Notes under the pieces: model-generated | What the model was told of the DNA's origin: nothing | What the model saw: only the letters and a program-made list of their open reading frames with translations | Databases searched by the model: none | Program-made: the position numbers and the translations under genes | Shown: piece after piece, positions 2,696-54,422 of the stretch | Position numbering within the stretch: the first letter of the stretch is position 1 | How the letters are laid out: every line of letters starts with the position of its first letter | NCBI GenBank assembly: GCA_043812495.1 | Contig: JBDRMG010000008.1 | Location: 1,516-65,515, forward strand | Length of the DNA: 64,000 nt | Source: Candidatus Omnitrophota bacterium | Lineage (GTDB): Bacteria > Omnitrophota > Gorgyraeia > Zapsychrales > JBDRMG01 | Reading direction: 5' to 3'

Positions 2696-2767
2696 AATAT
2701 CGAATAAATTCATTTTTTATTTTATAATATTTATGGAAATATTATTATTTCATTTGCTTAATTCCTC

Positions 2768-2874
2768 GCCCCGCTGCTTTCTTGCGAAAGCAGAAAGCGG
2801 GGCGAGGTCAATTCGGCCATGCACTTATGTTCTGCCGACTAATCGTCGGCATCCATAAGTGCAGGCCTCATTGA
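2768..2874 (+). repeat. Modular palindromic intergenic element, copy A (GC hairpin; 5' arm GGTCAATTCGGCCATGCACTTATG; variable inner hairpin; 3' arm CATAAGTGCAGGCCTCATTGA)
   Basis: Seen directly. The arms form a bulged stem of about 22 bp. The element ends 20 nt before the receiver start codon. Four related copies occur elsewhere in the window. Confidence 0.85.
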
Positions 2875-2894: not shown

Positions 2895-3269
2895 ATGGCG
2901 GACAAGCTTAAGATATTAGTAGTGGATGATAAAAAAGTCATTGGTGATCTTTTTGACTATACCCTGGGCTATCGGGGTCACGAAATCACTGTGGTGGACA
3001 ATGTCCAGAAGACGCTAGAGGCCATCAAAAAAGAAAAGTACGATATTGTTTTCTTAGATATTGTCATTCCGGACACCGATGGCGTCGAAATATTCAAAAA
3101 AATAAAAGAAGTCGCTCCCGACCTTCCGATTGTTATGATGAGCGGTTATTCGGTTGAAGAGAGAAGGAAAGAAGCGATTGAAATGGGCGCTGTTGCCTGC
3201 TTGGTCAAGCCTTTTGAGATGGAGGAAGTCAGAAGAATTATCAAGGGAGTATTAGCGAAAGAAGTTTAA
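2895..3269 (+). CDS. Single-domain response regulator receiver (CheY-like)
   Basis: LKILVVDD...DIVFLDIVIPDTDG...MMSGY...K receiver motifs. RBS GAGGAA upstream. Start ATG 2895 preferred over 2859. Confidence 0.85.
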   Translation: MADKLKILVVDDKKVIGDLFDYTLGYRGHEITVVDNVQKTLEAIKKEKYDIVFLDIVIPDTDGVEIFKKIKEVAPDLPIVMMSGYSVEERRKEAIEMGAVACLVKPFEMEEVRRIIKGVLAKEV

Positions 3270-3340: not shown

Positions 3341-4747
3341 TTATTGATAAAAATTCAGAGCCGCTTCGCCAATCGTTTCCGAAAGCGTCGGATGCGGATA
3401 AATACTTGAGGCAATATCGGACACTTTGAGTCCCTGATCGACGGCGATGACGCCCTGCGCGATCAACTCGCCGGCGCCCACCCCGACAATACCCATTCCT
3501 AAGATTTTCTCTGATTGAGGATCCACAATAATTTTCGTTAAGCCGTCATTGCGCTTAAGCGTTGTGGCGCGTCCCGAGGCCATCCATGAGAATTTTTCTA
3601 TTTTAACTGGACGATTTTCTTTTTTAGCTTGAGTTTCAGATAAGCCGCAGGTCGCGATTTCGGGATCCGTAAAGACAACCGCCGGAATAGTTCGAATCCG
3701 TGCAACGTTGGTCTGACCGGCGATCACTTCGACGGCCATGCGCGCTTCAGCCGATGCTTTGTGGGCAAGCATGGGCGGACCTGTAACGTCACCAATCGCA
3801 AAAATAGAAGGGTCGTCGGTTTGGCATTTCTCGTTGGCTTTGATAAATCCGTCTTCATCCATTTGTGCTTGCGTGTTTTCTAATCCACAATGCTCCGTGT
3901 TGGGTTGCCGACCGACCGCCATCAATATTTTCTCGAACTCTTCTTCTGTCGTTTCTTTTTTCTCATTTTCCCATTTGGCACAAAGGCTGTTGTCTTTCTT
4001 ATGAATATCAATGAGTTTTGCTTGAAGATGTAGCGTTTTAAAAGTTTTATGTAAGCGTTTTTGTAAAACAGCCATCAAATCGGAATCTATACCGGCTAAC
4101 CATTGGCCGGTCATTTCTATAATCGTGACTTGCGATCCCAGGCGGGCATAAACGGTCCCGAGCTCAAGACCGATATAGCCGCCGCCTACAACCAGAAGGG
4201 TACGGGGAATATCATTGAGCTGCAAGGCTGATTGAGAATCAAGTAGGCAAGAAGAATCCCTTTTGATCCAAGAAGGCATGATTGGACGGGAACCTGTAGC
4301 GATAATGGCTTTGTCGAATGAAAGTTTTTCTTCGCACCCATCAGATTTTCTAATGAGAAGTGAAGACGAATCAAGAAAAGAGGCCTCCCCTTGGATGAGC
4401 GAGATACCCTGTTTTTTGATCAAATGATGAAGTCCGGCATATAATTTCTGAATGACGCTTTGGTTCCAGCTTCTGAGCTTTGCCCAATCGAGCTTTGCAG
4501 AGAATTCAATTCCAAAATCATTCGCCTCTTTAGATTCTGAAAGTAATTTGGCCACATGCAGTAAGGCCTTGGAGGGAATGCAGCCTTCATGAAGACAGAT
4601 GCCCCCGACCTTTTGGGCTTCAATCAGTGTGACATCGACTCCAAATTTGGCTGCTTGCAAAGCCGCTGTGACGCCGCCTGGGCCGCTTCCGATAATCGCA
4701 CAAGATGTTGTTTTTTTCTGCATCGTCTTGATGAATTTTTTAACCAC
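3341..4747 (-). CDS. lpdA: Dihydrolipoyl dehydrogenase-like class I pyridine nucleotide-disulfide oxidoreductase
   Basis: GxGxxG FAD motif (IIGSGPGG). Redox-active disulfide GGICLHEGCIPSK. NAD-binding GGGYIGLE. C-terminal dimerisation His-Pro region. Confidence 0.75.
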   Translation of the reverse strand: MVKKFIKTMQKKTTSCAIIGSGPGGVTAALQAAKFGVDVTLIEAQKVGGICLHEGCIPSKALLHVAKLLSESKEANDFGIEFSAKLDWAKLRSWNQSVIQKLYAGLHHLIKKQGISLIQGEASFLDSSSLLIRKSDGCEEKLSFDKAIIATGSRPIMPSWIKRDSSCLLDSQSALQLNDIPRTLLVVGGGYIGLELGTVYARLGSQVTIIEMTGQWLAGIDSDLMAVLQKRLHKTFKTLHLQAKLIDIHKKDNSLCAKWENEKKETTEEEFEKILMAVGRQPNTEHCGLENTQAQMDEDGFIKANEKCQTDDPSIFAIGDVTGPPMLAHKASAEARMAVEVIAGQTNVARIRTIPAVVFTDPEIATCGLSETQAKKENRPVKIEKFSWMASGRATTLKRNDGLTKIIVDPQSEKILGMGIVGVGAGELIAQGVIAVDQGLKVSDIASSIYPHPTLSETIGEAALNFYQ

Positions 4748-5574: not shown

Positions 5575-7301
5575 AGAAAAGCATGTCTTTCTCAAGCTTG
5601 AGTAACGGCTGGCTCATTGCCCTATTGGTTTTGGCAACATGCTTGGCTTACGGGCGATTTTTGGATAATCAATTTATTTGGGATGATTATCTTGTGCTTA
5701 AAAAGAATTCCTTTGTCCATTCTTGGAAGAATTTTCCTAAACTTTTCAGTCCCGAGTACATTACATCCCCCTCTCAGGTCTATGATGTTGGCAAGAAAGA
5801 TATCGGAGCCGGAGAACTGACCTACCGTCCCGTTTCGACGTTAACGTATTTTATTGAGTTTTCCTTTTGGCAGAAAAACCCCCTTGGGTATCATTTAACC
5901 AATCTTTTTCTACATATCTTAAATGTACTTTTAGTGTTTTGGTTCGTTCGTTTATTAAGCAAGGAACGAATGATTTCATTCGTCGCAGCCCTCATCTTTG
6001 CCCTTCATCCGGTTGGCTCAGAAGTTGTTTACAATATTTCTTTTCGGGAAGATCTCCTCGCATGCTTTTTTTGCCTGTTATCCTTTATTTTCTATATTCG
6101 CCTTGATTTGAAAGAAGGCCTTAAGAAAACGTTTTTCTATTCCCTATCTGTTCTGTTTTATTTTCTAGGCATTTTTTCTAAAGAAATGGCGATCACCTTG
6201 CCTATTCTACTTGTTGTTCACGATATCTATATTGCATTGCCGGGCGGGCGGACTCAATTATTCCAACGGATAAAATCGCGCTATTTCGGCTATATCCTGG
6301 TGACTTTATTTTATCTTTGGGTTTGGTTCTTTCCCATGGCGCGTCATCCGGAAGAAATGATTACTTATCCCTGCGAAAGCCTTTTTCTTAATATCCTAAC
6401 TATGATAAAGGTGTTTGCCAATTATGTATATTGGCTTTTCTTGCCCTTCACGGTTCACGCGACCATTCCTGATGGGGCCTATTTTGTGCGGACAGTTTTT
6501 GCATGGGATGTTCTTCTATCCTTTTTGGTCATCATTCTTTCTTTGATTTATGCGGTCCAAACATTCAAGACAAATCGTACGATTTGTTTCGGTTTGACAT
6601 GGTTTTTCATCGTACTTCTGCCGGTTTCCAATATTCTTCCTATCCAGAATATTATTGCGGCGAGGTATCTTTATCTTCCTATGGTCGGATTTTGTCTCGT
6701 GATCAGTTATTTCTTCTTCGGGATTCTCCTCAAGAGCCAATTTTTGGGAAGAAGTATTTATAAGACAACCATCAAGAGTTCATTGATAGGCCTTATGGTT
6801 TGTTATGTGTTGCTGACCTTTGCCAGAGGCTATACGTGGAGAAATGATATTACGCTATGGAAGGAAATTGTTCGTTTCTATCCTCAGAGTATTAGGGCTC
6901 ATAAGAGCTTGGCCTTTATCTATGCCAATGAGGGTTTTAAGGACAAAGCGATTCAAGAGTATTCTCAAGCCAAGAAATTGAACCCCAATGATGTTGAAGC
7001 CCGCTATGCATTAGGCCAGCTTTTTCTTTTTCAGGGAATCTTAGATAAGGCTCAAGAAGAGTTTCAGGCCGTTATTGAGCGTGATAAAAAAATGGACATT
7101 GCTTATAATAATTACTGCATGGCATTGTATTATAATCAAAGGCAGGATGAATCGATCACGTGTTTCCTCAAGATGATTGAGGAGCATCCGGGCTCTGCAA
7201 AGCCATATGAGAATCTTGGGATGATTTATGAAAAGATGGGTAAGGCCCAAGAAGCCCGAAAGATGCGGGATAAAGCCCGCCAGATAGAAGAGAATAATTG
7301 A
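5571..7301 (+). CDS. Polytopic membrane protein, GT-C/PMT-like, with C-terminal TPR repeats
   Basis: About 11 predicted TM helices, then TPR-like repeats (AHKSLAFIYANEGFKDKAIQEYSQAKKLNPND...). Follows the Dpm1-like GT2. Confidence 0.6.
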   Translation: MKKSMSFSSLSNGWLIALLVLATCLAYGRFLDNQFIWDDYLVLKKNSFVHSWKNFPKLFSPEYITSPSQVYDVGKKDIGAGELTYRPVSTLTYFIEFSFWQKNPLGYHLTNLFLHILNVLLVFWFVRLLSKERMISFVAALIFALHPVGSEVVYNISFREDLLACFFCLLSFIFYIRLDLKEGLKKTFFYSLSVLFYFLGIFSKEMAITLPILLVVHDIYIALPGGRTQLFQRIKSRYFGYILVTLFYLWVWFFPMARHPEEMITYPCESLFLNILTMIKVFANYVYWLFLPFTVHATIPDGAYFVRTVFAWDVLLSFLVIILSLIYAVQTFKTNRTICFGLTWFFIVLLPVSNILPIQNIIAARYLYLPMVGFCLVISYFFFGILLKSQFLGRSIYKTTIKSSLIGLMVCYVLLTFARGYTWRNDITLWKEIVRFYPQSIRAHKSLAFIYANEGFKDKAIQEYSQAKKLNPNDVEARYALGQLFLFQGILDKAQEEFQAVIERDKKMDIAYNNYCMALYYNQRQDESITCFLKMIEEHPGSAKPYENLGMIYEKMGKAQEARKMRDKARQIEENN

Positions 7302-7663: not shown

Positions 7664-8611
7664 ATGTTGCCTATTTCTTTTCAAACACTCTCGGCGGCTA
7701 TTCTGCAAATTCTTTTAATGGGCGCCTGCGGTTATATGCTGTTTAAAAAACGGCTCATCGATGAGGCGGGGTTGGATCTTCTGACGCGGCTTTTGATGAA
7801 TTTCTTCCTGCCGATCTTTATGTTTTATCAGCTGACCCAAAGGTTTCGGTTTTCCGTTTATCCGGATTGGTGGCTGTATCCGGTCTTGAGTTTTATCATT
7901 ACAGCGGTGGCCTTGGTGCTTAGCCGTTTGGTTCTTGCACTTAGCCAAAAAGTGAAATGCCCAAAGGAATTTATCAGCCTTTGTGTCTTCCAGAATTCCG
8001 GTTATATTCCTTTAATTTTAGTAGCGACTCTTTTTGAAGGACAACAGGCGGAAGATTTATTTGTCTATATTTTTCTATTTCTCATCGGCTTTAATCTGAC
8101 GATGTGGTCCCTGGGAACGTGGTTTGTCGCAAGTCAGAAAACGTCAAGATTTCAGATAAGAGAATTCTTTAATCCGCCTCTAATCGCCCTCTTGATCGCA
8201 TTTGGCTTGATTGCCTTAGGGTGGCAGCGTTTTGTGCCGCCGTTAATTCTGAAGCCCATGAAATTATTCAGTCAGTGTGTTTTTCCTCTGGCGATGATTA
8301 TGGTCGGAGGAAATCTGGGGCGCATACAAGTAAACGATATCCGCCCCAAAGAGATCATTCCGTTGGTGCTAACAAAATTGATCTTGCTTCCGCTTTGTGG
8401 CCTAGGAATAATTCTTCTTTTTCGTCTTCAGGGTCCCATGGCGTTTATTCTCATCCTGGAAACAGCCGTTCCGAGCGCGATTTCTTTGTCGATTATTTCC
8501 CGCCATTATCAAGTGGAGGAGTGCCTGATTAATCAGGGATTGCTGTTCACGCATTTAGCGAGCATTGTGACCATCCCTACGTTTCTCTCAATCTATAATT
8601 TGCTCCAATAA
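7664..8611 (+). CDS. AEC (auxin efflux carrier) family membrane transporter
   Basis: Ten-TM architecture. The N-terminal and C-terminal halves are typical of PF03547. Confidence 0.7.
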   Translation: MLPISFQTLSAAILQILLMGACGYMLFKKRLIDEAGLDLLTRLLMNFFLPIFMFYQLTQRFRFSVYPDWWLYPVLSFIITAVALVLSRLVLALSQKVKCPKEFISLCVFQNSGYIPLILVATLFEGQQAEDLFVYIFLFLIGFNLTMWSLGTWFVASQKTSRFQIREFFNPPLIALLIAFGLIALGWQRFVPPLILKPMKLFSQCVFPLAMIMVGGNLGRIQVNDIRPKEIIPLVLTKLILLPLCGLGIILLFRLQGPMAFILILETAVPSAISLSIISRHYQVEECLINQGLLFTHLASIVTIPTFLSIYNLLQ

Positions 8612-8613
8612 AT

Positions 8614-9075
8614 ATGGACCCAAAAAAAATAGCGACGAACAAAAAGGCCTTTCGTGATTATTTTTTTAGCGAAAAATGGGAGTGCGGCCTTGAACTCAAA
8701 GGAAGCGAGGTCAAATCTCTGCGGGCAAGTGAGGTGAGCTTTACCGATAGCTTTGCGCGCGTCGAACAGGGCCAGGTGATTCTTTACAATCTGCATATTG
8801 CTCCGTATCAACAGGGCAGTTATTTTAATCTGGAACCGACTCGACCGCGTCGGCTTCTTTTGCATAAAAAAGAAATCATGAGAATCGAAACTCATATGTC
8901 CCAAAAAGGACTGGCCCTGATTCCGACACGTATTTATTTCAACAGACGTGGCCTTGCCAAAGTGGAGCTGGCCTTGGGCCGCGGCAAGAAGCTTTTTGAC
9001 AAGCGGGAAGACATCAAGAAAAGAGATGTCGACCGCGAGATCAAACGCGCCGTACGGCATCAGCGCAAGCGTTAG
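8614..9075 (+). CDS. smpB: SsrA-binding protein SmpB
   Basis: Conserved SmpB core (NKKAFRDYF...GLELKGSEVKSLR...LYNLHIAPY...RPRRLLLHKKEI...RGLAKVELALGRGKKLFDKR). The tmRNA gene lies immediately downstream. Confidence 0.9.
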   Translation: MDPKKIATNKKAFRDYFFSEKWECGLELKGSEVKSLRASEVSFTDSFARVEQGQVILYNLHIAPYQQGSYFNLEPTRPRRLLLHKKEIMRIETHMSQKGLALIPTRIYFNRRGLAKVELALGRGKKLFDKREDIKKRDVDREIKRAVRHQRKR

Positions 9076-9189: not shown

Positions 9190-9335
9190 TCGGGGGTGAC
9201 AAGGTCTCGACTCTGCTTCGCCCAAATGTTTTCACGTTGGGCTTCGCAGAGTCTTCACAGGCAATAATAGGCGAAGCAGCCCTACGAAGCTCCCAAACGA
9301 AAGTTTTGGAGCGAAGTGGGGTAAATATAGACTTT
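9190..9335 (+). repeat. Degenerate duplicate of the ssrA 5' end (GGGGGTGACAAGGTCTCGAC) fused to a copy of the ssrA 3'-flank hairpin element
   Basis: 9192-9212 matches the tmRNA 5' end (9354-9375) at about 20 of 23 positions. 9209-9330 aligns with 9754-9860 (CTTCGCCCAAATGTTTTC vs CTTCGCTCAAATGTTTC; CCCTACGAAGCTCCCAAACGAAAG vs GCTCTACGAAGCCAAACGCGAAGG). Confidence 0.65.
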
Positions 9336-9353: not shown

Positions 9354-9753
9354 GGGGGTGAAAAGGGTTCGACTTAGGTTCGACAGCGTATAAGTGGCAT
9401 GCGGAGGAAGCTTGGTAGGCCTCCTTAATCATCCAAGCACCAAATAAACGCAAAAGAAAACGCGTTATTACTAGCGAAAGCTAGCTCCATTGTTGAGCCT
9501 GTTTTCGCTGGCGAAACAGTCTCAGTTATTCGATAACTGAGCCCTCTTATCAGCAATGCCTGTGGGCTGATAAAAGGTCGCAAGCAGGCTGGTTTCGCCG
9601 GTTGCTTTCACTGGCGGAATAAGACTTAAGAAAGCTGGTCCTGACTACGTTTGTCTGTTTAGAAGGCCAGGATGAGATTCAAAAAATAGACTAAGCATGT
9701 AGAGGCTTATACACTGTAACCCAAGGACGCGAGTTCGATTCTCGCCACCTCCA
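9354..9753 (+). ncRNA. ssrA: tmRNA (ssrA)
   Basis: 5' GGGGGTGAAAAGGGTTCGAC and 3' ...GACTAAGCATGTAG...GGACGCGAGTTCGATTCTCGCCACCTCCA match the conserved tRNA-like ends of tmRNA (compare E. coli GGGGCUGAUUCUGGAUUCGAC ... GACUAAGCAUGUAG ... GGGUUCAACUCCCGCCAGCUCCA). Acceptor pairing GGGGGTG/CACCTCC. Immediately downstream of smpB. Confidence 0.85.
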
Positions 9754-9945
9754 TTCTTCTTCGCTCAAATGTTTCGTCTCCCTTCGGTCGACTGCACGTT
9801 TGAGCTTCGAAGAATAAATTCTGCCGAAGAAGAATGCTCTACGAAGCCAAACGCGAAGGACCCCGATGATATATCGGGGACGAAGCATTTTGGCGTAGTA
9901 GAGCACTATTCCTTTTCAATTCTTTCCATAAGACATAGTTACTTT

Positions 9946-10188
9946 ATGTTCATCGTCTACATCATCACAAGTTTAAAAGACCCTTCTAAACATTACGTTG
10001 GCTTTACGAAAGACTTAGATAGACGTCTTATAGCCCATAATGCTCGAAAATCACTCTTTTCTAGAAAGTACTCTCCCTGGAAGATCGAATCTTATATTAC
10101 CTTTACCGATGAGAGGAAAGCTATAGCATTTGAGAAGTACCTTAAGAAAGGCTCTGGCCACGCCTTCCTTACGAAACACCTTATCTAA
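9946..10188 (+). CDS. Small GIY-YIG nuclease superfamily protein (COG2827-like)
   Basis: MFIVYIITS...HYVGFTKDLDRRLIAHN...FTDERKAIAFEKYLK matches GIY-YIG plus the downstream conserved Arg/Glu. The longer ORF from 9769 overlaps the ssrA flank, so the start at 9946 is preferred. Confidence 0.65.
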   Translation: MFIVYIITSLKDPSKHYVGFTKDLDRRLIAHNARKSLFSRKYSPWKIESYITFTDERKAIAFEKYLKKGSGHAFLTKHLI

Positions 10189-15070: not shown

Positions 15071-15529
15071 GTGGTGAAGCTTATAACCAAGAATACAGAT
15101 TATGCCATCCGGGCTCTTGTGGCGCTGGGTCAGGTGGGCGATGATTATATATCGGCGCGCGATCTTTCTCTTAAGCAGTCCATACCCTATGAATATTTGA
15201 GAAAAATCCTGCAGGTGCTTATTGGTGATGATTTGGTGGAATCTAAGGAAGGCGGAAGCGGCGGCTTCAAGCTGAATCCCAAGGCTCTCAAAATAAAAGT
15301 GACGGATGTCATGCGTATTTTCCAGGGCGATATTCAGCTTTCCGCATGTATGTTCAGAAAGAAATTATGCCCGCATCGCGATCAGTGCGCTCTGCGGGAC
15401 AATATTCAACAGATTGAACGCTCCGTAATCAGGCAATTCGGAAATTTAACCGTTGAGATCTTGATCCAACAAACAAAGAGGAAAGGCTATGAAAAGAAAA
15501 GTGATCAAAATCGACGAAGAAAAATGTAA
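15071..15529 (+). CDS. Rrf2-family transcriptional regulator (NsrR/IscR-like, with three Cys ligands)
   Basis: N-terminal wHTH (YAIRALVAL...ISARDLS). C-x6-C-x5-C cluster (CMFRKKLCPHRDQC). GTG start. Upstream of hcp. Confidence 0.8.
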   Translation: MVKLITKNTDYAIRALVALGQVGDDYISARDLSLKQSIPYEYLRKILQVLIGDDLVESKEGGSGGFKLNPKALKIKVTDVMRIFQGDIQLSACMFRKKLCPHRDQCALRDNIQQIERSVIRQFGNLTVEILIQQTKRKGYEKKSDQNRRRKM

Positions 15530-16205
15530 CGGGTGCGGCGAGTGCATACCCGATTGTCCGGAAGGGGCCTTAAAGATCGTCGACGGAAAAGTTAAACTCA
15601 TGAGCGAATCCCTCTGCGACGGACTCGGCGCTTGTGTGGGGCGGTGCCCGGTGGGCGCATTAACTATTGAAGAAAGAGACGCCGAGGAATTTGACGAAGA
15701 AAAGGCTCAGGACAATATGGAAAAAATGCACAGCGATCCCTCTCATCAGACGTCACAAGCCCATCAGGGTTGTCCCGGGATGATGGCTCGTCAGTGGCAG
15801 GACAACAAATCGCAAGCCACCGCTACCGTCCAAGGCGGTTCCGCGTTACGCCAGTGGCCGATTCAGCTGAAATTATTGAATCCGCACGCACCCTATTTTC
15901 AGGACGCGGAGTTAGTGATTGCGGCCGATTGCGTTCCGTTCAGTTTTGCCAATTTCCACGAACGGTTTCTCAAAGGTAAAATCTTAATCATTTTCTGCCC
16001 CAAGCTTGATTTTGCCCATGAGGAGTATGTCCAAAAATTAACGGAAATCATCAAAAGCAACAACATTAAATCCCTGACGACCGTCCATATGGAAGTTCCC
16101 TGTTGTAACGGCACAACGGTCTTGGCCGAAGAGGCCCTAAAAAGTTCCGGGAAAAACTTAATTCTCAAAGATTACACCATATCTCTTCAGGGGGAGATTA
16201 TCTAA
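15489..16205 (+). CDS. 2x[4Fe-4S] ferredoxin-domain protein with a C-terminal Cys-containing domain of unknown function
   Basis: [12 protein letters not shown] and [12 protein letters not shown] ferredoxin motifs. C-terminal CPKL...VPCCNG. Confidence 0.6.
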
Positions 16206-16215
16206 AGGAAATTCT

Positions 16216-17853
16216 ATGAGCATGTTTTGTAACCAATGCCAGGAAACAGCAAAGAATACAGGATGCACCGTCAAAGGAATATGCGGAAAGGATGAGCGTA
16301 CATCCAATTTGATGGATTTGCTCACTTTTACTCTAACGGGTTTATCGCTTTATGCGGAGGAATCCGAAAAGCCGTTAGACCGTAAGTATGGTATTTTTGT
16401 CACGCAAGCACTGTTTGCCTCAATCACCAATGTCAATTTTGACGAAGAGAGGATTATCGCACTTATCCAGAAATCGTTGTTTTTGAGGGAAGAGCTTAAA
16501 AATCAAATCCTATGGACTCATAAAAATGAGCTTCTCCCGCCAGCCACGTGGACTGCTAAGTCGAAAGACGAATTCTTAAAGAAAGCAAAAGAAGTCAGCC
16601 CTATGTCTTTTGATCAAGATGAAGATGCGCGCTCCTTAAAATCCTTAATTCTCTATGGCTTAAGAGGGATAGCCGCATATGCAGATCACGCGGCTATCCT
16701 TGGGTTTTATAATGACCAAATTTTCTCCTTTTTCTTTAAGGCCTTAGCTGCCTTGCCCAAAACAATTCCCATCGATGAATTAACGAAAATGGTCCTTGAA
16801 ACCGGGGATATTGCCGTTAAGGCCATGGCTCTTTTGGACGAAGCCAACACATCGACCTACGGCCACCCGGAAATCACAAAAGTCAATATCGGCGTGCGCA
16901 AAAATCCAGGAATACTAATTTCCGGTCATGACTTAAAAGATATGGAAGAGCTCTTGAAGCAGACCGAAGGAACGGGTGTGGATGTGTACACGCACAGCGA
17001 GATGCTTCCGGCCAATTATTATCCGGCCTTTAAAAAGTATAAACACTTTATAAGCAATTACGGAAGCTCATGGTGGAATCAAAACAAAGAATTTGAATCC
17101 TTCCATGGGCCGATTTTAATGACAACCAATTGTATTACACCGGTCAAAGAATCCTACAAGCATCGTATTTTCTCAACGGGAATGGCCGGTTATCCGGGCG
17201 TCAAACATATCCTTGATCGAGAGGACGGAAAACAAAAAGATTTCTCAGAAATCATTGCGCTGGCAAAGACTTGTCCACCGCCTCAAGAATTAGAACAGGG
17301 AGAAATCGTCGGAGGATTTGCCCATCATCAAGTTTTGCAATTGGCGGATGACATTGTTCGGGCCGTTCAATCGGGGGCTATTAAACGGTTTGTCGTCATG
17401 GCCGGTTGCGATGGCCGTCACGCAACGAGAAATTATTTTTCTGAGGTTGCTCAAGGATTGCCCAAAGATGCGGTGATTTTAACCGCAGGATGCGCCAAGT
17501 ATCGTTATAATAAACTTAATTTGGGACATATCAACGGTATCCCGAGGGTCCTGGACGCCGGACAATGCAATGATTCTTATTCCCTAGCCCTTATTGCTTT
17601 AAAATTAAAAGAAGTGTTTGGTGTTAACGATATTAATGAGTTACCCATTTCTTTTGATATTGCGTGGTATGAGCAAAAGGCGGTCTGCGTACTTTTGGCT
17701 TTGCTCTCGCTGGGTTTTAAAGGAATCCGATTGGGTCCGACATTACCGGCCTTTGTATCGCCAAATGTATTGAAGGTTTTAGTAGAAAAGTTTGACATAA
17801 AACCCATACATAATGCTCGAGAGGACGTCGAGGCTATAATGGCGGGACGTTAA
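16216..17853 (+). CDS. hcp: Hydroxylamine reductase / hybrid-cluster protein
   Basis: N-terminal [23 protein letters not shown] Cys motif typical of Hcp. Length 545 aa. Conserved hybrid-cluster Cys/His/Glu positions towards the C-terminus. Confidence 0.85.
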
Positions 17854-18497: not shown

Positions 18498-18686
18498 TTT
18501 CGGATATTATTCTACTTTGCATAAGCAATGAAAATGATGGTATATGTCCTTCTTCGTCCGCCATTGTTTCGTTGGCGGACTCCGAAGGATTCCTCCATAG
18601 CCTTGGCGAAGGAGAACTTCGTAGAATATTCTCGTTGGAGTAATTTTCCGAAGCCTATACCGTTGCTTGCTATTGGTAAGGCGAAG
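18498..18686 (+). repeat. Structured intergenic repeat family 'R', copy 1 (contains an internal partial tandem duplication)
   Basis: Shares TATTCTACTTTGCATAA..CTTCGTAGAATATTCTC..CCGAAGCCT.TACC..GGCGAAGGAGAATA with 52932-53050. Copy 1 has an extra unit of about 70 nt. Confidence 0.8.
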
Positions 18687-18735
18687 GAGAATAGGATAAG
18701 TTCAAGTAATCTATGCAGATCCATAAGGGGGTTTT

Positions 18736-19479
18736 ATGAAGAAGTTCATGACCTGGCAGGTCGGTTTAGGGTTGGGTTTGATCGCACTTTCGGCAACGGT
18801 TTATTTCATTCATTACCTTATTTTCAGAGACGCCCACCATATTTTTATTTATCTCGTTGGAGATATTGCCTTTGTATTCTTAGAAGTTTTAATGGTGGCG
18901 CTCGTGATTCACGAATTGCTTATCCATCGGGAAAAGCAGTCTTTGCTTCATAAACTTAACATGGTCATCGGAGTATTTTTTAGTGAAGTCGGAACGCATT
19001 TGCTCAAAACCATAACAGGTTTTATGGCTGAATCTTTTCAGGCGGATAAAGATTTGATTGTAACCAAGGACTGGTCAGAAAAAGATTTTTACAAGAAGAC
19101 CAAGCAATTTAGAGACTATGCTTTTCCGATCAAAAGCGAACACGGCGATTTGATATCCTTAAGAGATTTTTTGATAGAAAAAAGGCCGCTTTTGGTCAAT
19201 CTCTTGGAAAATCCGAATCTTTTAGAGCATGAATCTTTCACGGATTGCCTATGGGCGGTGTTCCATTTGGCCGAAGAACTCTCCTTCAGAAAAGATTTCG
19301 GACAATTACCCGAAACAGATTATCAGCACCTCTCCGGAGACATTCAAAGAGTCTATAGGGTCCTGATTGTCCAGTGGTTGTCCTATATGAAACATCTCAA
19401 GGACGATTATCCGTATCTGTTTTCCCTTGCCGCGAGGAGAAATCCTTTTGACAGAAATGCTTCGATTGTTATTCATTAA
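18736..19479 (+). CDS. Hypothetical membrane-anchored protein (2 N-terminal TM helices plus a soluble domain)
   Basis: ORF with RBS-like GGGGG upstream. I recognise no motif. Confidence 0.5.
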   Translation: MKKFMTWQVGLGLGLIALSATVYFIHYLIFRDAHHIFIYLVGDIAFVFLEVLMVALVIHELLIHREKQSLLHKLNMVIGVFFSEVGTHLLKTITGFMAESFQADKDLIVTKDWSEKDFYKKTKQFRDYAFPIKSEHGDLISLRDFLIEKRPLLVNLLENPNLLEHESFTDCLWAVFHLAEELSFRKDFGQLPETDYQHLSGDIQRVYRVLIVQWLSYMKHLKDDYPYLFSLAARRNPFDRNASIVIH

Positions 19480-19483
19480 CTTT

Positions 19484-19570
19484 TCAATGAGGCCTGCGCT
19501 TATGGATGCCGCGCCCGCCATTGATTCAGTGGCGGGCGGGGCAGAACATAAGTGCATGGCCGAATTGACC
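19484..19570 (-). repeat. Modular palindromic intergenic element, copy B (minus orientation; inner hairpin carries the CCCGCCCGCCA/TGGCGGGCG module)
   Basis: The reverse complement reads GGTCAATTCGGCCATGCACTTATG-ttc-[hairpin]-tc-CATAAGCGCAGGCCTCATTGA. Confidence 0.8.
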
Positions 19571-19617
19571 CAGCACTAATTTTGTAATCCTATTGACATG
19601 CAAAAATTAGTGCTGGG
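19569..19617 (+). promoter_or_regulatory. Perfect 15 bp inverted repeat CCCAGCACTAATTTT/AAAATTAGTGCTGGG whose 19 nt loop contains TTGACA; candidate operator/promoter for the MarC-family gene
   Basis: Read directly. A related half-site motif, CGCTAAATTTT-aga-AAAATTAGCG, lies inside element copy C (44503-44525). Confidence 0.5.
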
Positions 19618-19708
19618 ATAAAACAAATGCTATTATTATTTCCTTATTTACTTAAAAAATAATGATTAAAAAGCTAATGCATAAGACAAACGAAAGGATG
19701 AGATTACG

Positions 19709-40705: not shown

Positions 40706-40765
40706 TCATTTGTCAGCAATAAATTTCAACCAAATCTGCCGGGTTCTCGGTCCGTCAAACTCCAT
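40706..40765 (-). pseudogene. Diverged duplicate of the last 19 codons of yjbQ (encodes MEFDGPRTRQIWLKFIADK* versus the true MEFDGPRTREVWLKFISD*)
   Basis: About 85% nucleotide identity to 40842-40895. The two copies are separated by the 73 nt hairpin element. Confidence 0.7.
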
Positions 40766-40838
40766 TCTTCTTCGCTCTCATGTTTTCACATGAGAGCTCC
40801 GAAGCAATTTCAAACTTTAGAGCGAAGCAGAACCTTTT
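40766..40838. repeat. Hairpin element of the TTCTTCTTCGCTC family, inserted between the true and duplicated yjbQ 3' ends
   Basis: TTCTTCTTCGCTCT...AGAGCGAAGCAGAA outer stem. Inner hairpin GCTCTCATG-ttttca-CATGAGAGC. The 18-mer CTCCATTCTTCTTCGCTC (40760-40777) is identical to 9749-9766 at the ssrA 3' end. Confidence 0.7.
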
Positions 40839-41234
40839 TCAATCTGAAATAAATTTTAACCAAACTTCTCTGGTTCTCGGTCCGTCAAACTCCATCAAAA
40901 AGATCCCTTGCCATGTTCCCAACTGCAGATTTCCGTTCTCCACGATAAAAGTCTGAGAAAAACCCATGAGGCTGCCCTTGATATGGGCATCGGCGTTATC
41001 TTCCGCATGATTAAATCCGAAATCTTGCGGCACGGTTTTCTTCAAGAAATAATGGATGTCCCGCTTGACATCGGGATCCGCGTTCTCATTGACCGTTAAG
41101 GCTGCCGTGGTATGAGGAGAGTAGACGACTAAAATCCCTGAGTCGCATTTTTCCTTGCGAAGATAGTCTTTGATGTCAGGTGTTAAGTCAATAATTTGCT
41201 CTCTTTGGGTTGTTGGAACGTTGAACTTATACAT
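40839..41234 (-). CDS. YjbQ/UPF0047-family protein
   Basis: Conserved UPF0047 segments (GILVVYSPHTTAALTVNEN...DAHIKGSLMG...LGTWQGIFLMEFDGPR). Confidence 0.8.
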   Translation of the reverse strand: MYKFNVPTTQREQIIDLTPDIKDYLRKEKCDSGILVVYSPHTTAALTVNENADPDVKRDIHYFLKKTVPQDFGFNHAEDNADAHIKGSLMGFSQTFIVENGNLQLGTWQGIFLMEFDGPRTREVWLKFISD

Positions 41235-44339: not shown

Positions 44340-44405
44340 GTTTTTATTGATTACAATGGATCGGAAGGATAATAAGAGAATTATCATCATTTAATTTGCT
44401 TACTT

Positions 44406-44559
44406 CCCCTCGTCCGCCATCGATTTTAGCAGTGGACTCGGGGTCAATTCGGCCATGCACTTATGTTTCCGTCAATTCGATAGAATCGAATTGACGAGAC
44501 CTCGCTAAATTTTAGAAAATTAGCGGACATTATCATTCCATAAGTGCAGGCCTCATGGA
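44406..44559 (+). repeat. Modular palindromic intergenic element, copy C (longest; inner hairpin GTCAATTCGAT/ATCGAATTGAC plus inserted CGCTAAATTTT/AAAATTAGCG module)
   Basis: 5' arm 44442-44465. 3' arm 44538-44559 (CATAAGTGCAGGCCTCATgGA). Ends 14 nt before the cusB-like start. Confidence 0.85.
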
Positions 44560-44573
44560 AAGGAGTATGAACC

Positions 44574-45839
44574 ATGAAGACAAAAGTGATTGTTTTGATT
44601 TTGCTTTGCGGACTCATGACGATGGCACTCTATGGAACAAAGGCGACGGCTGAAAATCCCGAAATCAATTACTATACCTGCGGTATGCATCCCAGCGTGA
44701 AGGTATCCCTCGAAGATTATAATAGAGGAAATCAAAGTTGCCCCATTTGCCATATGAATTTGACACCGGTCTATCAAGAAGCGAGGGTCATGCCGTCGAA
44801 AAAAGAACGGAAAGTTCTTTTTTACCGAAATCCGATGAACCCGAGCATCACGTCCAAGGTCCCGGCCAAGGATGAAATGGGCATGGATTATATTCCTGTC
44901 TACGAAGAAGGGGCACAAGAGACATCGACCCCACAAGCTTACATCGAACGTGTTATGGTTAAAGCTGATCAGGCAAAGTTAGCCGGCATTCAAACAGAAC
45001 CCGTAAGAAAATATCATCTTTTCAAAGAAATCCGAACCGTTGGGACCGTGGCCTACGACCCAGAAATGGCGGTGGCACAGGATGAATTTATTTCGGCTGT
45101 AGCGACCCTGGAAAAAATTCGGCAAGGAAAAATTTCCGATATTACCGAGCGGGCCGAAGCCCTGGTGAAATCCTCAGAAAGAAAGTTGCGTCTGCTTGGA
45201 TTAAACCAGTCCCAAATCGATGAATTGGCGCAGACACGAAGCATTCAAGAAAACCTGATTCTTCCAGAGGAAAAAATGTGGGTCTACGCAGAGGTCTATG
45301 AATACGATTTGCCGTGGATCAGCGAAGGAAACAAGATTACGATGACAACGGCTAGTCTACCTGGAGAAGAATTCTACGGCGTTGTGACATCCGTCAATCC
45401 CGTTGTAAATCCGAAAACCCGCTCCGTGACTCTTCGCGCGCAAGTTGATAATCCGGATTTAAAACTTAAACCCGATATGTATGTTGATGTCGTCGTAAAA
45501 AGCATGTACAAGGGGCCGCAAGGCGAAGAGATGATCCTGGCCGTACCCAAAGAAGCTGTTTTAGATACGGGAACAAGAAAGATCGTTTGGGTCGATGACG
45601 GTAATGGAACCTATGAAGGCCGGGAAGTGATCATCGGCCCGGAAGCTATCGCCATGACAGAGAAGAAAGAAATGGAGGCCTATCCCGTTCTGCAAGGTCT
45701 TCAAGAGGGCGATCAGGTTGTCACAAAAGGAAATTTCCTGATTGATTCGCAAAGCCAGATTACGGGAGTGGCGGCTTCGGCTTACAGCGGGGCGTTGGAT
45801 TCACAAAAGGAAAAGATAGCTCCGGCGCATCAACATTGA
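44574..45839 (+). CDS. RND efflux membrane fusion protein (CusB/CzcB-like) with N-terminal metal-binding motif
   Basis: N-terminal YTCGMHP...CPICHMNL Cys/His motif, then the HlyD-like lipoyl/beta-barrel region. Confidence 0.8.
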   Translation: MKTKVIVLILLCGLMTMALYGTKATAENPEINYYTCGMHPSVKVSLEDYNRGNQSCPICHMNLTPVYQEARVMPSKKERKVLFYRNPMNPSITSKVPAKDEMGMDYIPVYEEGAQETSTPQAYIERVMVKADQAKLAGIQTEPVRKYHLFKEIRTVGTVAYDPEMAVAQDEFISAVATLEKIRQGKISDITERAEALVKSSERKLRLLGLNQSQIDELAQTRSIQENLILPEEKMWVYAEVYEYDLPWISEGNKITMTTASLPGEEFYGVVTSVNPVVNPKTRSVTLRAQVDNPDLKLKPDMYVDVVVKSMYKGPQGEEMILAVPKEAVLDTGTRKIVWVDDGNGTYEGREVIIGPEAIAMTEKKEMEAYPVLQGLQEGDQVVTKGNFLIDSQSQITGVAASAYSGALDSQKEKIAPAHQH

Positions 45840-45880
45840 TTAATAAAGAAAAGGAAATATTATAGCTGCATTTGCTTAAT

Positions 45881-45982
45881 CCCCGCCCGCCATTGATTCA
45901 GTGGCGGGCGGGGTCAATTCGGCCATGCACTTATGTTCTCCGCCATAATTCGTGGCGGATCCATAAGCGCAGGCCTCATTGA
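45881..45982 (+). repeat. Modular palindromic intergenic element, copy D (GC hairpin CCCCGCCCGCCA-ttgattcag-TGGCGGGCGGGG plus arms)
   Basis: 5' arm 45912-45935. 3' arm 45961-45982. Ends 14 nt before the ATG at 45997. Confidence 0.85.
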
Positions 45983-51018: not shown

Positions 51019-52947
51019 ATGACGGGTAAAACAGTCCATAAACTCCGGTTCAAAAATTTCAAGATTCGCCAAAAGCTCATCCTGATCCTGTTGGTCATTT
51101 CTTTGATTCCGCTTTTGGCCGTCAGCATCTATAATTTCTACTACGCAAAATCAGAACTTGAAAAGAAGGCCATTGACCGACTGAAGGCCGTAACCCTGGC
51201 GCGGGAAGCCCATATCAATCACTTCATCCAATTGCGGCAGGAGCAAGCCAAGCAAATTGCCGGCGGTTTTTTGCCTCGTCAGTTAAGAGAATCCGGCCTC
51301 AATGATCCGGAAATTGTTCGCGGTATCCAGGCTGATATTAATGCCGCTTTCTACGATTTAAATCTGGAACCCTCCGGATATTACAAAAATATCGATCAGA
51401 AGACAGACATTGAAATCATCGGCATATGGGATGTTCTCGGGACGATCATCGCCAATACCAACAGAGACCTGATCGGGAAAAAAATGCCCATTGAATATAT
51501 GCAGAATGTCTATAAACAGGGGACATTTTTCGGAGGGCTTGAGAAGGATCCTCTGACCGGAAAGAATTTCTTAATTATCTTAGAACTGATCCGCAATTGG
51601 AGAACAAATGAAATCGTGGGGGCTGTTTCATTAAAGATCAGAGCCAAGACGCTTAATGAAATCACAACCGCCGGAGAAGGCTTAGGCCAGACCGGCGAAA
51701 GCTATATTGTCGATAAGCATTACCGTATGATCACGCCGTCGCGTTTTGCGGATAATGCAATTCTCAAGCTTAGCGTTAAAACCGAAGGGACCCGGGCCTG
51801 CTTTCGGCAAACCAAAGCACCCACCCTCTACAAGAATTATCGGGATACCTTAGTCTTGGGCGTCCAAAGATATCTGCCGGATGAGGATTGGTGTCTTGTA
51901 ACGGAAATTAATGCCAACGAGGCCTTTGCGACGACAGAGGCCCTGCGTAACCGGACGCTCGTGATCGGAGGGCTTTTTCTTTTTGTTATTTTATTCTTGA
52001 CCTATAAAGCCACAGAGTCTTTTGTCCAGCCTATTATCAAACTGCGCAATGCCTCGAGTCAGGTGGCCCAGGGCGATTATGATGTTGTGCTTCATGAAGA
52101 TAGCCAGGATGAAATCGGAGAGCTCTCTAAAGTGTTCAATGAAATGGCCAAAAATCTAACCGCTTTCAAGTCGGAATTGGAAGAAAAAAACAAAGAGCTT
52201 TTTAAGAGCCTTGCGGTATCCACTCAACAGAAGAAGGAATTAAAGAAAGTCAACCAGGAGCTGGATAGTTTCGTTTATACGGCCAGTCATGATCTTCGCG
52301 CACCTTTGCGCGGCATTGCTTCCTTCGCCACTTTCTTAGAAGAAGATTACAAGAACAAACTTGACGATGAAGGGAAAGGCTATATTGACGAAATTCGAAA
52401 AGGCGCGACCAAAATGAACGCCCTCATCGAGGACTTGCTGTCCTTGTCCCGTATTTCCCGCATCAAGAATCCTTACGAAGATGTGCCGATCAGGCCATTG
52501 ATTGATTCCGTCTTGGAGCGCATCAAAGTCGATATCCAAAAGGAAAAAGTCCGCTTGATCATTGCGGAGAATTTGCCGACCGTTTACTGCGACCGCATTA
52601 AGATGGCCGAGGTGTTCTTGAATCTCATTAACAATGCGATCAAATTTTCCTCAAAAAACAACAAAGACCATCCTCAGGTGGAAATTGGCTATATGGCTGA
52701 GGATGACCATCATAAATTTTTCGTAAAAGACAACGGTATCGGGATTGATCCCAAATACCATGAACAAATATTCGGTATCTTTAAACGCTTACATACGGAC
52801 AAGGAATATGAAGGAACGGGAGCGGGTTTAAGCATTATTAAACGCGTAATCGATGATCACCACGGCAAAATTTGGATCGAATCGAAACTCGGACAGGGCG
52901 CCGCGTTCTTTTTTACGATCCCCAAGAATTTATTCTACTTTGCATAA
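51019..52947 (+). CDS. Sensor histidine kinase with periplasmic Cache-like domain, HAMP, HisKA and HATPase_c
   Basis: Two TM helices flank a periplasmic domain of about 270 aa. H-box SHDLRAPL. N, G1 and G2 boxes. Confidence 0.85.
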   Translation: MTGKTVHKLRFKNFKIRQKLILILLVISLIPLLAVSIYNFYYAKSELEKKAIDRLKAVTLAREAHINHFIQLRQEQAKQIAGGFLPRQLRESGLNDPEIVRGIQADINAAFYDLNLEPSGYYKNIDQKTDIEIIGIWDVLGTIIANTNRDLIGKKMPIEYMQNVYKQGTFFGGLEKDPLTGKNFLIILELIRNWRTNEIVGAVSLKIRAKTLNEITTAGEGLGQTGESYIVDKHYRMITPSRFADNAILKLSVKTEGTRACFRQTKAPTLYKNYRDTLVLGVQRYLPDEDWCLVTEINANEAFATTEALRNRTLVIGGLFLFVILFLTYKATESFVQPIIKLRNASSQVAQGDYDVVLHEDSQDEIGELSKVFNEMAKNLTAFKSELEEKNKELFKSLAVSTQQKKELKKVNQELDSFVYTASHDLRAPLRGIASFATFLEEDYKNKLDDEGKGYIDEIRKGATKMNALIEDLLSLSRISRIKNPYEDVPIRPLIDSVLERIKVDIQKEKVRLIIAENLPTVYCDRIKMAEVFLNLINNAIKFSSKNNKDHPQVEIGYMAEDDHHKFFVKDNGIGIDPKYHEQIFGIFKRLHTDKEYEGTGAGLSIIKRVIDDHHGKIWIESKLGQGAAFFFTIPKNLFYFA

Positions 52948-53050
52948 CCAATGGAAATAATAGTATCTGCTTCGTAGAATATTCTCCTCGGAATAATTCT
53001 CCGAAGCCTGTACCATTATGTTCCATTAGTAAGGCGAAGGAGAATAAAGG
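52932..53050 (+). repeat. Structured intergenic repeat family 'R', copy 2
   Basis: Aligns with 18498-18686 apart from a deletion of about 70 nt. The first 16 nt overlap the last codons and stop of the kinase gene. Confidence 0.8.
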
Positions 53051-53594: not shown

Positions 53595-53960
53595 ATGGCC
53601 GGAAAAATATTACTTATTGATGACAACGAACAAGATCTCAAAATCATGAAAAGGTATCTGAGCCCCCTTGGTTTCGATGAAATCTTAATGGCCGAAACCG
53701 GAGAGCAGGGCCTTGAGCTGGCCAAGACCGAGCAACCGGACATTGTCATCACGGATACGCAAATGCCGGGGGTGGACGGATTCGAGGTCTGTCAGAAAAT
53801 CAAGGAAGCCGGTTTAGAAAGCAAAGTGATCATCATCACCGGACACATTGATGCCGTGGATGCGGTCAAAGCCATAAAAATGGGAGCCGCCGATTATTGC
53901 GTTAAAACAGATGATTACGATTTTCTCTTACAAGCTGTTAAAGGACAAATGTCCGCGTAA
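53595..53960 (+). CDS. Single-domain response regulator receiver
   Basis: ILLIDD...IVITDTQMPGVDG...IITGH...K. Confidence 0.8.
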   Translation: MAGKILLIDDNEQDLKIMKRYLSPLGFDEILMAETGEQGLELAKTEQPDIVITDTQMPGVDGFEVCQKIKEAGLESKVIIITGHIDAVDAVKAIKMGAADYCVKTDDYDFLLQAVKGQMSA

Positions 53961-54007
53961 ATTTTACAAGACTTTAAAGAAGAAATAGTTAATTCTTATT
54001 TGCTGTA

Positions 54008-54044
54008 CCCAGCCCGCCGTTGAATCAATGGCGGGCCTCATTGA
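54008..54044 (+). repeat. Modular palindromic intergenic element, truncated copy E (GC hairpin GCCCGCC-gttgaatcaat-GGCGGGC plus the terminal CTCATTGA)
   Basis: Shares the hairpin module and the 3' terminus of copies A-D. Ends 12 nt before the receiver ATG. Confidence 0.65.
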
Positions 54045-54056
54045 AAGGACAAAACG

Positions 54057-54422
54057 ATGATTAAAAAAATTCTCATTGTCGAAGATAATGAAGTGGATCG
54101 AAAATTGATGCTGCGAGCCTTGATCAGCGCCGGTTATGCGAATGATATCTACGTAGCTGACTCCGGAGAGAAGGGAGTCGAACGATTTAAGGACAATAAG
54201 CCGGATGTCGTCGTTTTGGATACGGTTTTGCCGGGCATGGATGGCTTCGAAACCTGCAAAAGGATTAAAGATATCGATCAGAACGCGAACATCATCATCT
54301 TGACCGGTGAGATGGGCGCATTAAACCGTGAAAAAGCCAAAGAAGCCGGCGCCAATGAATATATCGCCAAAGGCTTGAACTATGCCGCCCTCAAAGATGT
54401 TTTCTGTAAAATCAATCAGTAA
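54057..54422 (+). CDS. Single-domain response regulator receiver
   Basis: ILIVEDNEVD...VVVLDTVLPGMDG...ILTGE...K. Confidence 0.8.
   Translation: MIKKILIVEDNEVDRKLMLRALISAGYANDIYVADSGEKGVERFKDNKPDVVVLDTVLPGMDGFETCKRIKDIDQNANIIILTGEMGALNREKAKEAGANEYIAKGLNYAALKDVFCKINQ

Follow-up and report, generated by a model that had tools for sequence, protein, structure and literature searches.

A double-hairpin dispersed repeat, apparently mobile, in the genome of an Omnitrophota bacterium

Five copies of a double-hairpin repeat in spacers between genes

The 64,000-nt stretch analyzed here (the window), taken from contig JBDRMG010000008.1 of a Candidatus Omnitrophota bacterium, holds five copies, labeled A to E, of a palindromic repeat that sits in the spacers between genes. 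According to Pfam, the gene order around four of them is histidine kinase, copy A, receiver; CsoR, CusC-like OEP, copy C, CusB-like adaptor, copy D, CusA-like RND pump; and receiver, copy E, receiver. Copy A is bordered by the histidine kinase (1202-2695) and receiver (2895-3269) genes and copy E by two receiver genes (53595-53960 and 54057-54422), while copies C and D lie in a copper-efflux operon and occupy the spacers between cusC (stop at 44339) and cusB (ATG at 44574) and between cusB (stop at 45839) and cusA (ATG at 45997). Copy B is inverted and lies 4 nt past the stop codon (19479) of an unknown transmembrane gene (18736-19479) and at least 63 nt before the MarC gene at 19709. The genes downstream of the copies are functionally unrelated. 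The copies extend as follows:

2735-2874, plus strand: copy A, full; AT module 2735-2763, hairpin 1 2764-2807, hairpin 2 2806-2874
19484-19645, minus strand: copy B, full and inverted; hairpin 2 19484-19570, hairpin 1 19571-19620, AT module about 19618-19645
44377-44559, plus strand: copy C, full; AT module 44377-44405, hairpin 1 44406-44443, hairpin 2 44442-44559
45853-45982, plus strand: copy D, full; AT module 45853-45880, hairpin 1 (the GC module) 45881-45913, hairpin 2 45912-45982
53981-54044, plus strand: copy E, truncated; AT module about 53981-54007, GC hairpin 54008-54036, 3' tail GGCCTCATTGA 54034-54044

Each full copy comprises, from 5' to 3', an AT-rich module of about 30 nt, hairpin 1, and hairpin 2. 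The 24-nt 5' arm of hairpin 2, GGTCAATTCGGCCATGCACTTATG, has four exact matches without a mismatch, at 2806(+), 19547(-), 44442(+), and 45912(+), where shuffled sequences give an expectation of 0, and the 21-nt 3' arm, CATAAGYGCAGGCCTCATKGA, has four matches at 2854, 19484(-), 44539, and 45962 (0.01 expected). Among the four full copies the arms are identical over the 24 nt and at least 95% identical over the 21 nt; the spacers that they enclose are unrelated and 24 to 73 nt long. The resulting stem consists of 5 bp (TCAAT/ATTGA), a 2x2 internal loop (TC/TC), 4 bp (GGCC/GGCC), a 1-nt bulge, and 10 bp, followed by a well-paired apex that differs in each copy. Its foot, GGGGTCAATTCGGCC/GGCCTCATTGA, is invariant and reads GGGG-TCAAT-TC-GGCC ... 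GGCC-TC-ATTGA. Hairpin 1 is unrelated in sequence among A, B, C, and D and has a constant CC(C) opening and GGG(G) closing around a variable palindrome. The RNA fold of each full copy consists of two hairpins in tandem (z -5.5 to -9.4; for copy A, -73 kcal/mol and z -7.2), and folds as single-stranded DNA are stable on both strands (z -7.6 to -12.8).

An initial annotation of the window, made from the sequence alone, had listed these copies, including the truncated E at 54008-54044, with their two arms and a GC hairpin module, and had described a bulged stem around a different inner hairpin in each copy. All of these are present, and the fold of hairpin 2 agrees in every full copy. The positions given for the copies were right, but their extents were too short: copy B also includes hairpin 1 at 19571-19620, and all five copies are preceded by the AT-rich module, GGAAATATTAT-N6-CATTTGCTTAAT, with which the repeated unit measures 130 to 185 nt rather than 87 to 154 nt. 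A covariance model of hairpin 2, run over the whole window with filters off, returned the four full copies at 70 to 92 bits (A, 86.6; B, 82.2; C, 70; D, 91.5) and copy E weakly, but no further full copy, which leaves a density of 5 extragenic palindromic copies in 64 kb. Copy E reads as a B-like copy minus two internal segments (CCCAGC|CCGCC and GGCGGGC|CTCATTGA), and such a deletion derivative implies a common descent of the copies as entire units.

Copies C and D are insertions. In the two relatives whose CusB proteins are next closest to that of the window (62 to 63% identical), cusCBA is one conserved operon in which the cusB-cusA spacer is 8 or 23 nt long; cusC and cusB are 12 nt apart in one relative, and the other has a P-II gene between them with 42 nt after it. 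The corresponding spacers in the window are 234 nt (cusC-cusB) and 157 nt (cusB-cusA). No trace of the arms is found at the relatives' cus loci, either with up to five substitutions or by covariance model. The extra DNA in the window corresponds to the element together with its AT module, so the module must have arrived together with the hairpins. As for the wider neighborhood, window segments 3341-4747, 7664-9075, and 15071-17853 show partial synteny with other Omnitrophota, the order Mem_trans-SmpB-tmRNA being as in locus L024. The Rrf2-ferredoxin-prismane genes of the window are the neighbors of the cus operon in another Omnitrophota locus (L004), and the operon therefore has a different neighborhood in the source genome.

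Four of the five copies are co-oriented with their operons, on the sense strand, which places them in polycistronic mRNA, and the elements in the window are almost certainly cotranscribed with these operons. The claim that the repeat always abuts a start codon holds for A, C, D, and E, which end 20, 14, 14, and 12 nt from an ATG, and fails for B, where no start codon and no credible gene follow the inverted element.

The modules of the repeat are shared, inverted, and nested. The GC hairpin module described earlier as either prepended (D, E) or used as the inner hairpin (B) is indeed common to D (as hairpin 1), B (as apex), and E, but in B and E it is the reverse complement ("flop") of that in D. 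Across the window the motif CCGCC[AG]N4-12[TC]GGCGG occurs five times against an expectation of 0.025, and the mini GC hairpin CCGCCA-loop-TGGCGG, seen in both orientations, can take the place of hairpin 1, form an apex, or stand by itself. The apex of copy C consists of two hairpins, a GTCAATTCGAT/ATCGAATTGAC palindrome that reuses sequence of the 5' arm and a second one, CGCTAAATTTT/AAAATTAGCG. One mini hairpin stands alone:

18552-18584, plus strand: stand-alone mini GC hairpin, CGTCCGCCA-TTGTTTCGT-TGGCGGAC, of the module type seen as hairpin 1 of C and D

This solitary hairpin sits in a 70-nt insertion (18547-18616) within a different repeat family. In a 94% relative of Omnitrophica UBA6210, a tRNA-His copy has its D-arm interrupted by a close homologue of the GC hairpin, tCCGCCATTGAATCGTCGGCGGa, and a CTCAG repeat flanks this insertion. 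That small palindromes are reused, inverted, and nested, both in the apex and in place of hairpin 1, suggests that they build up where existing hairpins stay undisrupted.

Two further repeat types were observed in the window. The family that hosts the solitary hairpin is about 118 nt long and 84 to 88% identical between its two copies (18507-18693, the one with the 70-nt insertion, whose mini GC hairpin resembles hairpin 1 of copy C, and 52930-53046), which lie 40 to 60 nt upstream of the start codons of a transmembrane protein (18736) and a receiver (53107); it could be a shared promoter or leader. A third type of hairpin repeat (CTTCGC.CAAATGTTT..., rich in CGAAG/CTTCG) is present on both sides of the tmRNA gene (9200-9320 and 9757-9905) and again near 40.8 kb (40760-40835). 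Here, the hairpin at 40766-40842 is enclosed by a direct repeat of 53 nt (40713-40765 and 40843-40895; 85% identical) that amounts to a duplicate of the 3' end of a UPF0047 gene (minus strand, 40839-41234). A small hairpin insertion within so long a duplication recalls a duplicated tRNA-His end in UBA6210, described below.

Homologues in tRNA and intron contexts of other genomes

When 185,579 species genomes were searched for the foot of hairpin 2, with a pattern in two parts that fixes 24 bases and should match about 0.13 times by chance, four matches came out. Two are clear homologues with the layout of hairpin 1 followed by hairpin 2, one in Omnitrophica UBA6210 (L008) and one on a Planctomycetales-labeled contig (L009). 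The other two, in a CRISPR array (L006) and in a coding sequence (L007), were rejected as chance matches in GC-rich DNA that the search pattern itself forces. For the initial annotation, a lack of arm conservation in related genomes would have told against its reading; two other genomes do conserve the hairpin 2 foot. Omnitrophota themselves are members of the Planctomycetes-Verrucomicrobia-Chlamydiae (PVC) group.

In L008 the core (7059-7194) splits a duplicated 28-nt 5' fragment of tRNA-His between tRNA nt 13 and 14, directly upstream of the intact tRNA-His gene. The empty site is preserved in L029, a relative of UBA6210 whose neighboring DUF748 protein is 90% identical; there, the DUF748 stop codon is followed by 29 nt and the intact tRNA-His gene, with no element. 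Comparison of the two sites defines the core as hairpin 1 plus hairpin 2 only, without AT module, terminal inverted repeats, or target duplication. At the same tRNA-His gene we observe a second small insertion, at about 6797-6975, where the tRNA 3' end AATCCCGTTACCCACCC is duplicated approximately 140 nt downstream and brackets a GC-rich insert.

In L009 the core forms the first approximately 105 nt of a 397-nt group I intron (441-837; Rfam, 74 bits). In-silico removal of the intron yields a tRNA-Asn(GTT) that is accepted by ARAGORN, and the P1 pairing of the intron, GCUGU/GCAGC, is retained, which puts the element in the P1 loop, an insertion-tolerant position. The interrupted anticodon loop belongs to the tRNA-Asn(GTT) gene at 406-880, and the gene just upstream encodes a four-helix-bundle protein (23S rRNA IVS type), judging from its translation alone. 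The L009 copy, like that of L008, has no AT module. A weak, diverged relative of the element (25 bits) was found in a 645-nt insertion between the tRNA-Pro and tRNA-Arg genes of further UBA6210 relatives; in another relative the spacer is 45 nt. In L012, one of the UBA6210 relatives, a 5' fragment of tRNA-Arg(ACG) at 9425-9495 carries a 20-nt perfect palindrome, CCTGCCTGCCGGCAGGCAGG, in its D-loop; a GIY-YIG open reading frame (ORF) runs from the anticodon onward, followed by an intact tRNA-Arg(TCT).

The outside copies (L008, L009, L012) are sense to tRNA genes in the orientation opposite to that in which four window copies are sense to protein genes, so that the internal loop as transcribed is UC/UC in the four sense copies of the window and GA/GA in the three outside copies. 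In the six sequences compared, neither the outer 9 bp of hairpin 2 nor the GGG before them varies. Of all cells, 93% are paired, as opposed to 18 to 44% in slid controls, and 4 of 19 pairs, all in the inner stem, show double compensatory changes. The foot is thus constrained in sequence, the inner stem in structure only, and the apex not at all. An invariant foot, a covarying inner stem, and an orientation that is not conserved argue against a strand-specific RNA function of the whole family and in favor of a folded foot that is recognized as DNA.

Other searches returned little. The exact 20-mer AATTCGGCCATGCACTTATG has no match in the 185,579 species genomes or in JGI metagenomes, which places the source genome outside those collections. 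A gapped pattern of the inner stem has no match in JGI metagenomes, and the foot pattern has none in viral contigs. Covariance model R1 gave only weak, diverged matches of 19 to 25 bits on the relatives of the cus operon, the syntenic tmRNA/GIY-YIG loci, and the DUF748 relatives.

Likeness to known repeats and competing explanations

We consider it likely, at a probability of roughly 0.6, that the repeat is a lineage-restricted, nonautonomous, hairpin-forming dispersed element of a selfish nature, of the REP/REPIN/BIME type (REP, repetitive extragenic palindromic; BIME, bacterial interspersed mosaic element). It appears to be a previously undescribed variant of a well-known class, set apart by comparison with Rfam, with phage and plasmid sequences, and with the literature, and apparently a mobile piece of DNA, not a gene-specific regulatory switch. 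The initial annotation had placed it among the mosaic small dispersed repeats of the REP, BIME, BOX, or Correia class, an assignment supported by the cus insertions, by presence and absence in L008 and L029, and by the shared, inverted, and nested modules. It had also reported no match to any known family, and we find none in Rfam, in phage or plasmid collections, or in full-text sequence searches. Rfam 15 at gathering thresholds returned only tmRNA and tRNA over the window, and the best sub-threshold matches over the elements reach 21 to 25 bits against thresholds of 40 to 76 bits, none of them plausible. Plasmid and phage collections contain nothing similar to the element, and full-text literature searches gave no match to the arms in a relevant context.

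Likeness is greatest to REP/REPIN elements with their RAYT (TnpA-REP) transposases and to the BIMEs of Enterobacteria and Pseudomonas. These too are extragenic, dispersed, often located in operons and cotranscribed; they are bulged, imperfect palindromes with two conserved inverted arms around a less conserved middle (the REPIN layout), and they lack terminal inverted repeats and target duplications. The mosaics of units in alternating orientation that BIMEs form are resembled by the reuse of the GC module in both orientations and at different positions. The two conserved inverted arms, single long hairpin, and variable spacer that define a REPIN are all found here. A REP is also recognized by a tetranucleotide, GTAG/GTGG (or CGTC), 0 to 2 nt from the hairpin foot (PMC3733652, PMC6006769). 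This tag is absent: all copies, and the two outside homologues as well, have GGGG ahead of the hairpin 2 foot, and neither end carries GTAG, GTGG, or CGTC. The element further differs from REPs in its unit of 130 to 185 nt with two tandem hairpins and an added AT module, in apices occupied by unrelated, well-paired palindromes, in its occurrence in Omnitrophota and the PVC group, and in the lack of a RAYT gene among the approximately 50 ORFs of the window. The enterobacterial motifs specific to BIMEs (Y/Z PUs; S, L, r, l) are absent from the copies.

The motif GGGG[AT][CG]A[CG] has been reported in inverted repeats that flank genes of the TIRYT / TnpA-REP subclass 2.1 type, repeats that are partly self-complementary or "double palindromic" and moderately abundant (Di Nocera 2013, PMC3733652; Quentin 2018, PMC6006769). 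The invariant GGGGTCAA fits 7 of its 8 positions, a comparison made with the published motif. The eighth position is A instead of C/G, there is no TIRYT gene among the ORFs of the window, and GGGGTCAA does not occur in the supplementary files of PMC3733652. A putative kinship with TIRYT / TnpA-REP subclass 2.1 elements is thus a lead only. Nevertheless, GGGG at the position of the tag, together with the 7/8 fit, makes a Y1/HUH enzyme acting on single-stranded DNA hairpins the best guess.

Palindrome-associated elements (PATEs) derived from IS200/IS605 share hairpins at both ends, foldability as single-stranded DNA, and the lack of terminal inverted repeats and target duplications. However, hairpin 1 is not conserved in sequence, no 4- to 5-nt target is conserved in the left flank across seven copies, and no TnpA/TnpB was found. 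Correia elements (CREE/NEMIS) of Neisseria and the pneumococcal BOX and RUP elements resemble the repeat in being 100 to 200 nt long, gene-adjacent, cotranscribed, and modular (BOX A/B/C), and the long stems of Correia elements are likewise potential RNase III substrates. None of the Correia hallmarks (26-bp terminal inverted repeats, TA duplication, IHF site) is found in the element, the sequences are unrelated, and where BOX-type modules stand in a row, those of the element are nested in one another's loops.

Mobility would be compatible with a portable promoter cassette, in which the AT module is an outward-facing sigma-70-type promoter, the hairpins are a stabilizing 5' end, and each insertion creates a new start. 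We regard this as unlikely, although it fares best among the competing explanations. The module accompanies the hairpins and is found on their 5' side in every case, the cusB-cusA spacer of the relatives is just 8 to 23 nt, and in A (2721-2748) and D (45836-45863) the TATTAT of the module is scored as a -10 box paired with an acceptable -35 box. These scores are no better than those of shuffled AT-rich DNA, though, and a promoter consensus for Omnitrophota is not established; no promoter is called for B, C, or E, the -35 box of D falls outside the module, and the copies of L008 and L009 have no AT module. A sigma-54 promoter or a small ORF in the module was also considered and rejected, as spacing and reading frames are not conserved (by eye). 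No terminator-like site is called at any copy, and an intrinsic terminator was discarded as well.

A bolder proposal, which we hold to be rather improbable, takes the foot and the mini hairpin CCGCCA..TGGCGG as substrates of an unrecognized structure-targeting mobilization system in PVC-group bacteria, distinct from RAYT, IS200, and DDE transposition, that would insert palindromes preferentially into hairpin loops. Its target loops would be the apices of other copies, the D-loops of tRNAs, and the P1 loop of the group I intron. Such a system would explain the nested and shuffled copies, the flip/flop of the GC hairpin, and the survival of insertions in structured RNA genes. The enzyme might, speculatively, be a small nuclease that clusters with tRNA or tmRNA genes, e.g., one of the 80-amino-acid GIY-YIG proteins.

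A gene for an 80-amino-acid GIY-YIG nuclease directly follows the tmRNA gene of the window (9946-10188). The order SmpB-tmRNA-GIY-YIG is also seen in other Omnitrophota (L020, L024, L026), and relatives of UBA6210 have similar small GIY-YIG genes beside tRNA genes. As an autonomous partner of the element this gene was rejected: its position after tmRNA is syntenic across Omnitrophota, and those loci are without the element.

Four copies precede an ATG by 12 to 20 nt on the sense strand, immediately ahead of the ribosome-binding site, a location that would also fit a cis-regulatory RNA leader (a riboswitch, an attenuator, or the binding site of a regulator) that selection keeps upstream of the receiver and cusB/cusA genes, where it would control translation or the fate of the mRNA. 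The strong fold with covariation agrees with this, and in predicted folds the tail CUCAUUG pairs weakly with AUGA of the start region. Yet the downstream genes have no function in common, copy B is inverted with no gene downstream, and orthologous cus operons do without the element. In addition, it is the helices that are conserved in sequence and the loops and apices that vary, the opposite of ligand-binding RNAs; the homologues are oppositely oriented, one within a tRNA fragment and one within an intron loop, and no Rfam family matches. A regulatory leader is therefore improbable. More generally, a special link between the element and start codons is not supported, given the exception of copy B, the outside copies in tRNA contexts and opposite orientation, and unremarkable flank statistics.

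The suggestion of the initial annotation that the repeat might be a MITE (a miniature transposable element with inverted repeats) is contradicted in its classical sense, i.e., a deletion derivative of a DDE-transposase insertion sequence, moved Correia-like by cut and paste through terminal inverted repeats. In favor of such an element are the small size of the repeat, its place between genes, the long stem that its two conserved arms build, and its polymorphic presence. The inverted arms, however, are internal, forming the foot of hairpin 2, and the ends of the core (CCCC... and ...CATTGA in the L008/L029 alignment) are not inverted repeats of each other. There is no target duplication at the L008 insertion point compared with L029, the direct repeats flanking the five copies of the window are not significant (p = 0.09 to 0.55), and no insertion sequence is nearby, all of which makes a classical MITE very unlikely. 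The purine-rich direct repeats at C and D were rejected as target-site duplications, being no better than shuffled or cross-copy controls.

Least probable is a relic or part of another hairpin-using system: bulged, imperfect palindromes between co-oriented genes recall integron attC sites, but there are no RYYYAAC/GTTRRRY core sites (the ends read GGTCAAT...ATTGA(N)), the window has no integrase, and cusCBA is a single operon in relatives; a CRISPR repeat seen in L006 and in a published Thiodictyon genome has at its 3' end the tail GGCCTCATTGAA(A/G) of the element, which would suit a solitary repeat with Cas6/Cas5d-type processing, but the window has no regular repeat-spacer array or cas gene and the resemblance is largely forced by the search pattern; and a group I intron fragment, suggested by the one homologue inside such an intron (L009), was rejected because the L009 intron and its P1 are complete without the element and Rfam finds no intron core in the window. 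The L006 array (1600-1960, Candidatus Azophilus) has the repeat ATTTCCCCCGCCTCAGCGCGGGGGCCTCATTGAAGC, whose last 15 nt also occur at the 3' end of the L008 element and its flank, and one of its spacers contains GGTCAATTCGGCCTT; these resemblances are probably a coincidence of the same origin.

Spread, effects on mRNA, and significance

If the repeat is a selfish dispersed element of the REP type, the unit that spread in the source genome would carry the AT module of about 30 nt on the 5' side of the hairpin core, and its copies would have entered the short stretches that separate a stop codon from the ribosome-binding site after it; in the other genomes the targets would have been tolerant loops of structured RNA genes. 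Given a core that lacks terminal inverted repeats, and an empty site that reveals no duplication of the target, spread most likely relies on a trans-acting enzyme able to recognize the folded foot in single-stranded DNA. A Y1/HUH transposase of the RAYT/TIRYT or IS200/IS605 type would be the leading candidate, as a lead only. The distance of 12 to 20 nt to the ATG is most simply explained by survival: where a spacer measures a few tens of nucleotides, an insertion is tolerated only if it falls upstream of the ribosome-binding site.

Within the mRNA, a generic role is probable for the two very stable stem-loops, as barriers or as processing sites, for example for 3'-exonucleases or RNase III, and they would thereby shift the relative stability of the flanking cistrons. 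REP and Correia elements of other bacteria act as exonuclease barriers or RNase III substrates, and by analogy such a role is to be expected of stem-loops of -50 to -73 kcal/mol between cistrons. A signal-responsive switch is improbable. The sequences themselves show the repeat family, its anatomy, its status as an insertion, its conservation across genomes, and the covariation; both the mode of mobilization and the effect on mRNA are what we infer from these comparisons.

Several points weigh against a selfish mobile repeat. No transposase, RAYT, integrase, Y1/HUH (PF01797, the type of gene that the repeats flank in a REPtron), or Cas gene is found by Pfam among the approximately 50 ORFs of the window, and none of these lies next to the L008 copy either, so the mobilizing enzyme is purely a matter of inference. 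This reading gives no account of the AT module, and the effect on mRNA stability is putative. About 200 kb of other sampled Omnitrophota DNA is without a copy, and exact-pattern scans of JGI metagenomes were empty. The known copies number five in the window and two clear plus one diverged elsewhere, which makes "high copy number" an extrapolation, and L009 owes its "Planctomycetales" label to a contig of just 3.4 kb that was assigned to a metagenome-assembled genome by binning. Finally, that four of five copies in the window are sense and end 12 to 20 nt before an ATG could reflect selection for a function rather than the survival of harmless insertions.

Omnitrophota and their relatives are known almost solely from metagenome bins, and their repeats are essentially uncharacterized. 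A double-hairpin family with a searchable 24-nt foot provides a marker for strain typing, an explanation for assembly breaks, and an aid to operon annotation; without knowledge of the family, the gaps of 150 to 230 nt in cusCBA would pass for promoters or small RNAs. The stem-loops at cusC-cusB and cusB-cusA may uncouple the stoichiometry of the tripartite efflux pump. A foot that is invariant across phylum-level lineages, exchangeable inner palindromes, and insertions in tRNA and intron loops point toward a trans-acting enzyme that reads structure, and finding that enzyme would extend the REP/RAYT paradigm beyond Proteobacteria.

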